DNA from: Escherichia phage vB_EcoS_W011D
Sequence record: NC_054893.1
DNA length: 49,847 nucleotides
Direction: 5' to 3' (one strand)
In this document: piece after piece, positions 23,551-49,847 of the stretch
How the letters are laid out: every line of letters starts with the position of its first letter
How positions within the stretch are numbered: position 1 is the stretch's first letter
The notes under the pieces: generated by a model
What the model saw: the letters and a program-made list of their open reading frames with translations, nothing else
Told to the model about the DNA's origin: nothing
Databases searched by the model: none
Position numbers and translations under genes: made by a program

Positions 23551-23556
23551 AAAAAA

Positions 23557-23572
23557 GGAGCCGTTAGGCTCC
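23557..23572. terminator. Bidirectional rho-independent terminator GGAGCCGTTAGGCTCC
   Basis: Perfect 6-bp stem with A8 upstream and T-rich tract downstream; the stop codon and last codons of the u-spanin gene lie inside the hairpin. Confidence 0.7.
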
Positions 23573-23956
23573 TTTCTTGTTTCTACCGTAACCGATAGCA
23601 ACCAGCATGATAGCGATTGCAGCGAAAAACAAAACGCTCGTTTGCCAATCCAGGCCGCTATCTGAATTACGGATCTCTATCTTATCCGCCGTTATGGTTT
23701 CAGCCTGAATGCTTGAGGCGCTCACCTTCTTTTTGTTTGAGGTGTCAACCTTGCCAACGGCTGAATCCTTAATCGTGCTTTCCTGCTTGCTGCTGGTGTC
23801 CTGCTTTGCCGTTACGCCTACCGTTTGTTTTACGTTTTCTGCTCCGGCTTGTGCTGTGATTTCCGGCTTACTGCCAATCAAACCAGTCAGCGCGCTTGAT
23901 GCCGAACAACCGGAAAGCATTACCGAAACTGCAATTGCTGTGATTACTCGTTTCAT
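23564..23956 (-). CDS. Unimolecular spanin (T1 gp11-type): lipoprotein signal plus C-terminal transmembrane helix
   Basis: 130 aa; N-terminal signal with lipobox LSGC; C-terminal hydrophobic helix [16 protein letters not shown] followed by basic tail; directly downstream of endolysin with ATGA overlap. Confidence 0.65.
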
Positions 23957-24662: not shown

Positions 24663-24735
24663 GATTAGATCCTCAAAGTTAAATTGTCAATAAATATGTG
24701 AATATATACTAACCAGCCTTGAACGAAAACGGAAC

Positions 24736-24765
24736 AATAAAAAAGGGGCTGGCAAATGCCAACCC
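24736..24765 (-). terminator. Rho-independent terminator upstream of the lysis cassette (minus strand)
   Basis: GC-rich inverted repeat GGGGTTGGC/GCCAGCCCC (one mismatch) followed by TTTTTTATT on the minus strand. Confidence 0.55.
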
Positions 24766-24959
24766 CTATCAAGTTGATGATTTAATTATGTTTTATAGTG
24801 GCGAAAAAGTCAGATAATGCCCGTTTAATGGTGCCTGGATTGCGCTTCCTTGACCGTCGCGGATCTCGTATAAATCACCACAAAGTTTCACGGCACGATA
24901 AACAGCGCCAACGATAAACGGTAAAGATTTTGATGTGTTACGGATGCAACGAACTTTCA

Positions 24960-26081
24960 TTATTTGATCTCCATCATTTCAGGGTAGAACATGAAGCGAC
25001 CAATCTCGCCATATTCCTTATCGTAAACAATCACCGCCGCACGACGACGAGAGCGCCAACCACCGCGCGCCGCGTAAGCGTCTTTTGCTGCCATAGTGGA
25101 ATGTACTTCCACAATCCCCAGGCTCGTTTCTGTTACGGTCTGGTGATGCCAATGGCCTACATGCGCATACATGCTCTTTGAGTTTCCGAAATCCTCCCGC
25201 CAATCTGCCGCGCACATCATCAACAGCGTTTCAGGCTTGCGGATCGTATGTCCATGATGGTAAGCCAGGAACGTTTTACCATATTGCGTGTGATGCACAA
25301 CGCGCGGAGACACATCAACGTTTACGCGAGGCTCGTTTTCGTATGCCGCCGCCATTGCAGCACGTAGCCAGATCATTCCTGATTGGTCGTGATTACCTTC
25401 AATGATTTGCACCTCAACCTCTTTATGCTTTGTCAGCATGAGGCTAATTGCGCGGCGCGTGGCTCGGATTGCAACGTAAACTAATTTTGCGTAACGGCTA
25501 TCTTGATCCAGAACGTGACCGCTTGCAGGTGTTACAGCCTCCAGGCCGTCACTGTGAAGCATATCGCCACCAATCAGGAGCACCGCCTTTTCACTGTTTG
25601 GCGATTTACTAACTGCATAATCGAAAAAGTTATTCATAACCCTTTCCGCCGTTGCGGTGTCGTAGTTCTCGCCGCACTCATGCTTGTGAGCCATTGCCCC
25701 CAGGTGCATATCAAAGATCGGATATAAAGCCAGGCTTTCAGAATAATCAGCGCGTGATTCCGGCTGAGGCTCCAAGCGTGGCACTTCCTCTGCGAAAGCA
25801 TCCATAGCGGCTTGCATGAGAGCCTCTAATTGCTCTTTGTCTTTATTGGTGATAGTCCATCTCATGACTTCCTCACCATTTGCGCGAGTTAAAACAGACT
25901 CGCGCACAACTGCATAACCTGGAGCGCCTTTAATTTCAGTCTCACCAGAACGCGCAAGGCGTGACGCTCGACGCTCGACACTGCGAACATTAAGGCCGAA
26001 CTCCTCTGCGATCTGCTTGTAGGTTTTCCCCTCTTTGCGTGCTTTAATAAACTGCTCGTCGGTGATTTTTCGTACAGCCAT
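24960..26081 (-). CDS. Calcineurin-like metallophosphoesterase with N-terminal helix-turn-helix domain
   Basis: 373 aa; N-terminal HTH-like KTYKQIAEEFGLNVRSVERR; phosphoesterase motifs FDMH, GGDMLHSD and GNHD in order; AAGAGGAA RBS. Confidence 0.6.
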   Translation of the reverse strand: MAVRKITDEQFIKARKEGKTYKQIAEEFGLNVRSVERRASRLARSGETEIKGAPGYAVVRESVLTRANGEEVMRWTITNKDKEQLEALMQAAMDAFAEEVPRLEPQPESRADYSESLALYPIFDMHLGAMAHKHECGENYDTATAERVMNNFFDYAVSKSPNSEKAVLLIGGDMLHSDGLEAVTPASGHVLDQDSRYAKLVYVAIRATRRAISLMLTKHKEVEVQIIEGNHDQSGMIWLRAAMAAAYENEPRVNVDVSPRVVHHTQYGKTFLAYHHGHTIRKPETLLMMCAADWREDFGNSKSMYAHVGHWHHQTVTETSLGIVEVHSTMAAKDAYAARGGWRSRRRAAVIVYDKEYGEIGRFMFYPEMMEIK

Positions 26082-26178
26082 TTCAAAATTCCTCTTACAT
26101 CATTACCAAATAATACATTGCCAGCCATCCAGCAATCGGCGCAAATACTACAGCAAAATAACCACGCATACAATCAAC

Positions 26179-26427
26179 CTACCTTCTTTTTTGTGCTTTC
26201 TTTGCCGCGTCCTCTTTTGCCTTTTCCTCTCGGAAAAATTGCAGGGAAGGAATCGCCGGAACCCTGTGAACCTTTCGCGGCCTTTCGTCAATATATGACA
26301 GCTTTCCGTTGCCAATAATACTAACGTCTTTAATATCGAAATATTTAGCAATTAGTGCGATCCCTTCATCTAAACCGCACTCTTTTGCATGTTGCCAAAC
26401 TGCCTGGCGTCCGGTTTCAATCTTCAT
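26179..26427 (-). CDS. Hypothetical basic protein (82 aa)
   Basis: Track ORF 26179-26505 trimmed to MKIETGRQ start. Confidence 0.4.
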   Translation of the reverse strand: MKIETGRQAVWQHAKECGLDEGIALIAKYFDIKDVSIIGNGKLSYIDERPRKVHRVPAIPSLQFFREEKAKEDAAKKAQKRR

Positions 26428-26572: not shown

Positions 26573-26628
26573 TTTGCAAATCCTCGTTTCGTTTCGTTGA
26601 AATGATTATGCCCCACTTTCGCGGGGCT

Positions 26629-26648
26629 GTTTTAACATTTCGTGCTAT
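26629..26648 (-). promoter_or_regulatory. Conserved 20-bp box copy (ATAGCACGAAATGTTAAAAC)
   Basis: Contains the TAG stop of 26645-26878; followed by hairpin CCCCGC/GTGGGG then ATAATC and the conserved leader. Confidence 0.6.
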
Positions 26649-30331: not shown

Positions 30332-30775
30332 ATGAATCGAATCGCTGTTTCAACTGGTGAAGTGGATAAACGCACAATCAATGGTAATAACGGGACACGT
30401 CGCGGAAAAGACAAAAAGCCGCGCAAGCGCAAAACAGGTTACTACGTGCTGAAAGATGAAGTAAAGGCCGGATTGCGTGCGCGCCTTGATATCTTACTGG
30501 AGTATTACGGAACGCAAGCCGAAATGTCGCGCCGTTTGAAGGTGTCGTGTCAGACCATTAACCAATGGAAGAAACGAGGCATGATTTCCGCCAGCGGAGC
30601 GCACAAGGTTCATCAGGACTATAAGCGCCAGGGGTGCAAGGGCTATCGCGCTTCATTCTGCCGCCCCGATCTGAAATTCGATTCAAACGGCAAGCCGTTA
30701 ACACTCAAGTGTGAAAAGCGCGAAATGCTCCGCGTTGTTCGCGCCTCAGATTTCGAAAACAGCACAAATAGCTAA
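30332..30775 (+). CDS. Helix-turn-helix DNA-binding regulator candidate
   Basis: 147 aa; basic N-terminus; HTH-like AEMSRRLKVSCQTINQWKKRGMIS; first gene of the rightward primase operon. Confidence 0.45.
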   Translation: MNRIAVSTGEVDKRTINGNNGTRRGKDKKPRKRKTGYYVLKDEVKAGLRARLDILLEYYGTQAEMSRRLKVSCQTINQWKKRGMISASGAHKVHQDYKRQGCKGYRASFCRPDLKFDSNGKPLTLKCEKREMLRVVRASDFENSTNS

Positions 30776-34106: not shown

Positions 34107-34205
34107 ATGTCTGATATAACTCTGTTACCAACTGGCGGAGATTTTGGTGGTGAAGCTGGGCGGCTGGCCTTGGCGGTGCTGGGAATGGCAGAAAGCGAAA
34201 AATAA
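34107..34205 (+). CDS. Candidate micro-ORF, 32 aa (MSDITLLPTGGDFGGEAGRLALAVLGMAESEK)
   Basis: ATG with GAGGTG RBS; ends at a terminator hairpin; in the 290-bp gap between the fibre gene and SSB. Confidence 0.25.
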   Translation: MSDITLLPTGGDFGGEAGRLALAVLGMAESEK

Positions 34206-34209
34206 AAAA

Positions 34210-34225
34210 GGAGCCGAAAGGCTCC
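34210..34225. terminator. Terminator GGAGCCGAAAGGCTCC (same hairpin as 37226-37241)
   Basis: Perfect stem with GAAA tetraloop; T-run on the minus strand after the SSB gene, weaker T-tract on the plus strand. Confidence 0.65.
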
Positions 34226-34234
34226 TTTAGTCGT

Positions 34235-37219: not shown

Positions 37220-37225
37220 AACAAA

Positions 37226-37250
37226 GGAGCCGAAAGGCTCCTTTTTTATT
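37226..37250. terminator. Bidirectional terminator GGAGCCGAAAGGCTCC plus T6
   Basis: Identical hairpin to 34210-34225, between convergent genes. Confidence 0.7.
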
Positions 37251-49589: not shown

Positions 49590-49847
49590 TAACAAACCCT
49601 CCGGCGACGTAAACCAGACACAAGGCCAAAGCCGCCGCCTTTCTTCCGGTTTAATGTTTCATACATTTTGCCCCACGGTGTTTGTCGGATTTCTTTGCCG
49701 GATGAATCAGCGGAAACGCGATCAAACGTCTGTGAAAATTCACCACTCAGGGAAAATGACGCAACTCGACGGGAATATGAATCCACGCTCTCACCTTCCT
49801 GTTTCATAGCGCCGTCAAGCGTCATAAGGTGCAACGTATAGAGCGCA
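49589..49847 (-). CDS. Head-tail adaptor-like protein spanning the window ends (true gene is about 139 aa; N-terminal part at 82-242)
   Basis: Track ORF 49589-49834 starts at the window edge; in the circular genome the same frame extends upstream to an ATG near 242 with GGAGGAAG RBS. Confidence 0.45.

Follow-up and report, generated by a model that had tools for sequence, protein, structure and literature searches.

The window analysed here is the 49,847-nucleotide (nt) sequence of Escherichia phage vB_EcoS_W011D (NC_054893.1), and the gene under study, at positions 24960-26081, encodes a protein of 373 amino acids (aa) in which a predicted helix-turn-helix (HTH) DNA-binding domain precedes a metallophosphoesterase (MPE) core with an intact active site. 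We give roughly an even chance to the proposal that this protein is a stand-alone, DNA-anchored two-metal nuclease of the Mre11/PolD-DP1 type, which would work independently of Rad50 on intermediates of phage replication and recombination. The original prediction, made from the sequence alone, had described a calcineurin-like phosphoesterase fused to an HTH-like segment and had suggested either a DNA-targeted nuclease/phosphoesterase or a regulator with enzymatic activity. A model of both domains, HTH profile matches and the MPE motifs all bear out the fusion. The first of the two functions fits best, while a regulator is less likely, given that homologues without the HTH exist. The open reading frame (ORF) and its translation were likewise as predicted, and they lie on the minus strand, which had been left unstated.

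An HTH domain fused to a complete metallophosphoesterase active site

The protein was aligned with 136 representatives of 50%-identity clusters, which are 31-57% identical to it. Residues D124, H126, D173, T184, N230, H231, H276 and H312 are invariant in this 137-sequence alignment, and G69, W75, G172, H176, D178, L191, D192, R196, G229, D232, G277 and H310 are conserved in at least 90% of the sequences. The MPE motifs read D124-x-H126 (I), G172-D173-x-x-H176-x-D178 (II), G229-N230-H231-D232 (III), H276 (IV) and G309-H310-x-H312 (V). All strings quoted in the original prediction were located, namely FDMH (D124, H126), GGDMLHSD (G172, D173, H176, D178) and GNHD (229-232), and the further motif strings are HHGH (275-278) and GHWH (309-312). 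In addition, the invariant T184 lies in a segment particular to the family, VTPxSGHxLDxDxR (aa 183-196). Read from the sequence, the five motifs (DxH, GDxxH, GNHD, H and GHxH) make up the complete predicted ligand set of a calcineurin-like MPE and are not a chance match. The predicted model shows the beta-sandwich fold of the MPE superfamily.

It had been suggested to check the assignment with the hidden Markov model PF00149, and this check gave no match. Neither of the Pfam Metallophos models PF00149 and PF12850 matched the protein at E values up to 10, and PF00149 was matched at E <=1e-3 by just 15 of 114 family members. Scans with NCBIfam and Pfam left the MPE domain unrecognised, apart from a sub-threshold PdeM match at the GNHD motif only. 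The family is too divergent for the Pfam models, and their failure reflects limited sensitivity and is not evidence against membership. Because the Pfam Metallophos models miss the protein, the MPE assignment rests on the motifs and the predicted fold.

The AlphaFold2 model, built on the 137-sequence family alignment, has a mean predicted local distance difference test score (pLDDT) of 92.3 and a predicted template modelling score (pTM) of 0.81, and it divides the protein into the parts listed in Table 1. The HTH-like segment, earlier estimated at about 60 aa, is a real three-helix HTH in the model, but a shorter one. Pfam HTH matches span aa 10-47 and fall just under their thresholds in this protein; the best is Sigma70_r4_2 (25.2 bits against a cut-off of 25.7), with HTH_23 and HTH_28 likewise sub-threshold. 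The HTHs of some homologues score above threshold, for instance GerE in Pantoea phage Nifs112 (26.9 against 23.5) and HTH_30 in Dinoroseobacter phage R4C (31.3 against 27). Across the 114 family members varied Pfam HTH families were matched, with a best E value of 1.5e-9. In sequence and model the N-terminus is a bona fide HTH domain, and DNA binding is predicted for it. Within the HTH the scaffold positions are conserved, and few parts of the family are less conserved than the recognition helix (aa 32-45).

The HTH is an independent, separable module, because homologues without it occur naturally and because, in the model, a confident three-helix bundle is followed by a low-confidence linker. 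Among Met-starting homologues, for example, P0209 and P0214 start at the hairpin and P0241 at the core, and gp151 of Campylobacter phage F375, with 317 aa, also has no HTH. Other homologues, P0220 for instance, have two HTH-like segments. The hairpin-helix element, which holds the nearly invariant G69 and W75, is kept in homologues without the HTH and so travels with the core.

On sequence evidence the gene is the orthologue of T1 gp16 and Rtp gp61 and a member of phrog_704. This family, named 'DNA repair exonuclease', gave a full-length profile match (E 1.5e-148; aa 4-370 against profile positions 2-389 of 390), and the record of Rtp gp61 describes that protein as 'highly similar to gp16 of phage T1'. 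A 'hypothetical protein' encoded by Escherichia phage PaulSarasin shares 99.7% identity with it. Bases 24700-26400 are 99.5% identical to PaulSarasin and 85.5% identical to vB_EcoS_PHB17 (Tempevirinae), and the lambdoid setting assumed earlier is not supported. Judged by these similarities, the source phage is a T1-like siphovirus of the Drexlerviridae and not a lambdoid phage.

Relationship to Mre11 and other metallophosphoesterases

Sequence methods did not show which kind of MPE the protein is, and comparison of structures told more. In a Foldseek search the top match was the MjMre11-DNA complex (E 6.8e-8). In the structure comparison generic small MPEs and cyclic-nucleotide or lipid phosphodiesterases came next at 12-14, and PPP protein phosphatases were at ~9. 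On this model the margin over MPEs that are not nucleases is modest, and the assignment of a DNA substrate consequently leans heavily on the fused HTH and the gene context. Motif II reads GDMLH here (172-176) and GDxLH in the family, with GNHD as motif III. The motif II consensus of Mre11 is GDLFH, and that of protein phosphatases is GDxVDRG.

The original prediction had also drawn an analogy to the free-standing Ser/Thr phosphatase of lambdoid phages. Lambda NinI, a PPP Ser/Thr phosphatase, has the calcineurin-like fold in common with the present protein and, like it, is encoded upstream of the lysis genes, in lambda also upstream of Q. However, a protein phosphatase of the NinI kind (Ser/Thr or Tyr) joined to an HTH is a most improbable reading, which the motif and fold tests have already largely refuted. 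The PPP signatures GDxVDRG and GNHE are missing, with GDMLHSD and GNHD in the phage protein instead. The profile comparison with NinI gave nothing meaningful (P = 0.063, over a motif-sized stretch), and the phage is T1-like. Beyond the common fold the protein is unrelated to the lambda phosphatase, and the analogy is not supported.

With Mre11 and SbcD the phage protein shares the His-containing GDxLH motif II and the GNHD motif III, but it is only 10-16% identical to them and gave no significant profile match. The capping domain of Mre11/SbcD is absent, as the phage protein ends ~60 aa past motif V in the AlphaFold2 model, and unlike Mre11/SbcD it has an N-terminal HTH and hairpin module. No Rad50/SbcC-like ATPase was found among the ORFs of >500 aa in the genome, which encode the large terminase, two helicases, a tail fibre, the tape measure and tail protein J. 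The possibility had been raised that the N-terminal segment is not an independent domain and that the protein is a standard SbcD/Mre11-like nuclease. With a separable HTH, no capping domain and no Rad50/SbcC partner, sequence and model instead indicate that it is not a standard SbcD/Mre11.

The archaeal PolD small subunit DP1, a 3'-5' proofreading exonuclease, is 14% identical to the phage protein, which has no OB-fold domain. Moreover, compared with PolD (DP1, and also the inactive B-subunits of eukaryotic Pol alpha, delta and epsilon), the phage has neither a DP2 partner nor a polymerase. No DNA polymerase was detected among the genome ORFs scanned, and to our knowledge T1-like phages encode none.

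Gene contexts in other phages

Gene contexts were sampled by hand across lineages, and they are overwhelmingly those of DNA metabolism. In T1-like phages the order is helicase, VRR-NUC, Dam, small ORFs and the phosphoesterase gene. The T7-like Pantoea phage Nifs112 has 5'-3' exonuclease, HNH and endonuclease VII genes before the phosphoesterase gene, and phosphatase, deoxynucleoside monophosphate kinase and ligase genes after it. In Campylobacter phage F375 the gene follows a DNA ligase gene, with a Holliday-junction resolvase nearby; in Klebsiella phage Geezett a primase and a polynucleotide kinase gene precede it, and in a T4-like contig a PIF1/Dda-type helicase gene does.

Orthologues with 62-66% identity are found in temperate mEpimmI phages and prophages (L009, L010, L011, L019 and L020), where they lie in the early rightward operon. 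The order there is repressor, cro-like gene, replication initiator (HTH_36 or Lin1244_N), a variable insert, phosphoesterase and DnaB-type helicase. In the mEpimmI prophages the DnaB-type helicase gene follows within ~18 nt of the phosphoesterase gene, and in mEp021 an HNH gene lies between the two. The type of initiator differs between these genomes, as do the flanking homing-endonuclease-like inserts, which points to the phosphoesterase and the helicase as a conserved pair within the mEpimmI replication module. A temperate roseophage with an integrase carries a homologue as well. In Jersey-like phages the gene lies within the tail cluster, in a small island on the opposite strand, and in Dhillonvirus it is one of two genes in a unit flanked by terminators, with the lysis genes on one side and the terminase genes on the other.

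The spread of the gene over unrelated phage lineages, sometimes in moron-like islands, would also be compatible with a role in anti-defence, in which the MPE hydrolyses cyclic mono-, di- or oligonucleotide messengers (as in CBASS, Pycsar, type III CRISPR or Thoeris-like systems) or some other small phosphodiester. We consider such a role improbable. A fused DNA-binding HTH has no obvious use with a soluble small-molecule substrate, motif II is of the Mre11-type GDxLH, the neighbours are genes of DNA metabolism, and a PADLOC-DB profile search returned 0 families at E values up to 1.

Proposed nuclease function and possible attack on host DNA

For the preferred reading, a DNA-anchored nuclease, we propose the following mechanism. 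A binuclear metal centre would be held by D124, H126, D173, N230, H276, H310 and H312, and by analogy the metal would probably be Mn2+. H231, oriented by H176 as in the GDLFH...GNHD arrangement of Mre11, would stabilise the transition state of DNA phosphodiester hydrolysis. The HTH, on its flexible linkers, would tether the enzyme to duplex DNA, while the catalytic domain could work on nearby ends, flaps and single-stranded stretches. This tether would replace the ATPase clamp of the Rad50/SbcC type, which the phage lacks. The gene is transcribed with replication and recombination genes and apart from the lysis cassette, and the most likely role would be the processing of phage DNA replication or recombination intermediates. 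What the analysis shows directly is the domain architecture, an intact active site, the neighbours of the fold, how the transcription unit is laid out and the gene contexts, whereas we infer the DNA substrate, nuclease polarity, metal choice and biological role.

Several results weigh against this proposal. The same genome also encodes a RecE-type exonuclease, an Erf annealing protein and a single-stranded DNA-binding protein. Searches of the PDB by sequence and by profile gave nothing significant and linked no solved nuclease to the protein, the best Mre11/SbcD matches of the profile search having E values of 0.3-1.3. An hhalign comparison with E. coli SbcD (P = 0.017, probability 2.6%) covered the GNHD motif only. 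The units in Jersey-like phages and Dhillonvirus, away from replication genes, look more like an accessory function. Finally, the literature found on the family consists of mentions in genome annotations, without any biochemical, genetic or functional study.

An accessory role of this kind would fit a nuclease for host takeover, which degrades or nicks the host chromosome early in infection, shuts off host gene expression (including that of defence genes) and supplies nucleotides. Phage T1 breaks down host DNA, and no sequence is known to have been assigned to the gene behind this (genetic locus 2.5). The A1 protein of phage T5, a pre-early protein, is annotated as involved in host DNA degradation and acts in second-step transfer. 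The full MPE ligand pattern is found in the A1 family, and a Pfam HTH in some of its relatives, so that the combination of HTH and MPE is apparently common to both families. A precedent for a phage MPE that disrupts host DNA is Gp48 of mycobacteriophage A10ZJ24, a cluster A MPE with phosphodiesterase activity that disrupts host genomic DNA, although an HTH is unreported for it (PMC12287305). No sequence relationship between Gp48 and the present family was seen, though no test aimed at one was made. We nevertheless find a host-takeover function unlikely, although it is the foremost of the alternatives. What speaks most strongly against it is that the 62-66% identical orthologues lie in the early rightward operon of temperate phages, which have to be able to establish lysogeny, and the temperate roseophage has a homologue too. 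Constitutive destruction of the host genome from a temperate early operon would preclude lysogeny, which makes this function, and equally the host-genome disruption by Gp48, difficult to square with the temperate-phage settings in which the present family occurs.

The profile similarity to T5 A1 is weak and colinear. It covers an extended motif III, E(G/S)NHDxxxSxWL (P = 9e-4), and the N-terminal region (P = 1.7e-3); a further profile comparison gave P = 0.0015 over a motif-sized stretch. Statistically it is insecure, as a comparison of the profile with the sequence scored 3.2 bits and the best of 500 shuffles 2.2, and T5 A1 was not among the named top matches in the viral structure library. 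A1 is also larger, with 556 aa and a ~200-aa conserved middle region that is absent from the present protein, and its motif II differs (HDxxD...NHH). We do not claim homology with T5 A1, since the profile comparisons are marginal and the profile-profile matches weak, though colinear.

In T5 A1 itself (L018 1709-3376; alignment A4), residues D304, H306, D340, N396, H397, H476, H501 and H503 are invariant in 43 sequences, and from the sequence they correspond to the canonical MPE ligand pattern. A Pfam scan of T5 A1 found nothing. Relatives with 43-49% identity carry the Pfam domains HTH_23, HTH_38, HTH_7 and CENP-B_N.

More speculatively, and with what we regard as a small chance of being right, the T1 gp16 and T5 A1 families could be two branches of one large class of HTH-tethered MPE nucleases without a Rad50-type clamp. 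In virulent T1-like phages the gene would then be the long-unassigned T1 function of host-DNA degradation and shut-off, and its loss would make T1-like phages efficient generalized transducers. Alternatively, in temperate phages, it would be a new component of the replication module that works with the DnaB-type helicase.

A widespread family

The fusion is not new: it is conserved in ~2,000 sequenced phages and is already annotated as such in GenBank. By tblastn, homologues were found in 2052 of 50,697 phage records (~4%), and an exhaustive phmmer search gave 4614 clusters at 50% identity with E <=1e-3, of which 1008 had E <=1e-30. The usual length in the family is 370-420 aa. GenBank labels include 'putative phosphoesterase', 'metallophosphoesterase' and 'DNA polymerase II small subunit', and the homologue of Pantoea phage Nifs112 is labelled 'HTH and metallophosphatase domains containing protein'. 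In the KanT1 paper the gene is called 'DNA repair exonuclease', and the phrog_704 family name is a homology-based guess. The protein is a member of a catalogued, very widespread family whose architecture is already publicly annotated, and nothing sets it apart from the other members of the phrog_704/T1 gp16 family.

Its value lies in the breadth of the family and the lack of any assay so far, and in nothing special about the present copy. The family is among the most widespread phage DNA-metabolism proteins without an experimental function. It is a persistent core gene of the T1-like Drexlerviridae, which are frequent in phage-therapy collections and notorious as laboratory contaminants, and it also occurs in Jersey-like phages, Dhillonvirus, some T7-like phages, T4-like Campylobacter phages, Vibrio phages and temperate enterobacterial phages. 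To settle between phage-DNA processing, host-DNA attack and counter-defence would improve the annotation of thousands of genomes, and the function could also account for traits peculiar to T1, for instance the breakdown of host DNA and transduction.

Proteins 82% identical to the present one are also found in the records of Campylobacter phage A112a (MG065685.1) and Streptococcus phage MBBL140 (P0041). These records probably represent contaminating T1-like phages or are mislabelled.

Transcription unit, promoters and terminators

The gene had been described as lying upstream of the lysis genes. This is true in the minus-strand sense, but a 55-aa ORF and a strong terminator (24744-24767; given as 24734-24767 in Table 1) intervene before the holin gene. 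The synteny described for Tunavirus, exonuclease-SH3-holin-endolysin-spanin, is the same as here. The position of the terminator, between the DUF7244 ORF and the holin gene, is kept in PHB17 and, with an unrelated stem, in Rtp (L001 6044-6069 and L006 7411-7430). Because this conserved terminator separates them, the phosphoesterase gene adjoins the lysis cassette but is not part of it. Membership in the cassette was rejected on the same ground, as the terminator is positionally conserved in three T1-like lineages. From the promoter onwards the order of the unit is a 51-aa ORF, a phrog_2817 ORF, the phosphoesterase gene, the DUF7244 ORF as the last gene, and the terminator. Judged from the sequence, all four of these ORFs are probably driven by the promoter copy at 26630-26648.

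Table 1. Features of the phosphoesterase gene, its product and its surroundings in the 49,847-nt window
Feature	Position	Strand	Details
HTH-metallophosphoesterase gene	24960-26081	minus	373 codons + stop, ATG start; stop codon 24960-24962; ORF and translation
Shine-Dalgarno sequence AAGAGGA	26090-26096	minus	8 nt 5' of the ATG; read from the sequence
Three-helix HTH DNA-binding domain (predicted), aa 8-45	25947-26060	minus	AlphaFold2 helices 8-16, 21-28 and 32-45, pLDDT 85-96; sigma-70 region 4 / LuxR-GerE / HTH_23 type
Flexible linker, aa 46-57	25911-25946	minus	pLDDT falls to 60-75
Family-specific beta-hairpin (aa 58-65, 71-78) and helix (aa 81-97)	25791-25910	minus	AlphaFold2 model, alignment
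Second low-confidence linker, aa 98-112	25746-25790	minus	pLDDT 62-68
MPE core, aa 113-373	24963-25745	minus	pLDDT 95-98; motifs I-V
55-aa DUF7244 (SH3-clan) ORF	24793-24960	minus	PF23896 match, E 1.6e-28; ATG overlaps the phosphoesterase stop codon (TAATG)
Strong intrinsic terminator (AGGGGTTGGCATTTGCCAGCCCCT then T-run)	24734-24767	minus	between the DUF7244 ORF and the holin gene
Promoter-motif copy given as nearest upstream	26605-26648	minus	ATAGCAC-N5-GTTAAAA (26630-26648), 19 nt, CATAAT
Promoter sites	1631, 7676, 17567, 17927, 19049, 20337, 21074, 23242, 30759, 36918, 47646	plus	
Promoter sites	6242, 10397, 11698, 12700, 13876, 14833, 15075, 15805, 26343, 26630, 27793, 30300, 35411, 41703	minus	

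The DUF7244 ORF is translationally coupled to the phosphoesterase gene through the TAATG overlap. Since the two are grouped transcriptionally, the DUF7244 protein could be a partner of the phosphoesterase rather than a lysis factor. The DUF7244 protein is described as a standalone SH3 protein (PMC13164509).

We also considered whether the small ORF overlapping the 3' end of the gene encodes a conserved partner. This was rejected, as these ORFs are non-homologous across lineages and DUF7244 is confined to T1-like phages. In the roseophage (L004 5131-5511) and the T4-like contig (L008 7446-7919) the 3'-overlapping gene encodes a MazG-like dATP/dGTP diphosphohydrolase (PF18909 / PRA-PH), which may point to a connection with the manipulation of nucleotide pools in some lineages.

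The promoter family comprises 25 copies of ATAGCAC-N5-G(T/C)TAAAA, each with a TATAAT-like hexamer 18-20 nt later, followed by a 'catcgaaacgaaacgAGGA' leader and a start codon. For the exact 19-mer, 14 matches with <=3 mismatches occur in the whole window, against 0.01 expected. The spacer/-10 region usually contains a GC-rich dyad in which the sequence varies and the pairing is kept (for instance GCGCCC..tggtataat..GGGCGC after 19067). Most copies face a downstream gene; those at 1631, 36918 and 47646 sit among genes of the opposite strand. A distance of this kind between -35 and -10 is not the usual one for sigma-70 and points to a dedicated recognition factor or an UP-like element.

So striking a conserved element, lying 5' of the -10 hexamer, might call for a factor of its own, and this raises the question of whether the phosphoesterase is itself a transcription factor, with an HTH that binds phage promoters such as these 25 (ATAGCAC-N5-GYTAAAA) and an MPE that is accessory or acts on a protein or nucleotide target located at the promoter. 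Sigma70_r4_2 as the best Pfam match of the HTH would agree with this, as would the label 'transcriptional regulator' of the homologue in Dinoroseobacter phage R4C. Even so, we think this quite improbable. The catalytic residues are invariant, whereas the recognition helix is poorly conserved; homologues without the HTH exist; and the family is far broader than the T1-like phages. Moreover, the phage has a separate dedicated regulator, phrog_2856, at 30332-30775, and the same type of promoter precedes the apparent first-expressed genes, which would be transcribed by unmodified host RNA polymerase.

Near-identical hairpins (AAAAAAGGAGCCGnnAGGCTCCTTT, with A-runs and T-runs at the flanks) occur at 23551-23575, 34204-34228 and 37220-37244, at three module boundaries. 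They look like bidirectional terminators that were reused or copied within the genome. Bases 1-81 and 49767-49847 form an identical direct repeat of 81 nt. This repeat would be an assembly overlap or a terminal redundancy, and the window looks like the whole genome of a phage, ~49.77 kb long.

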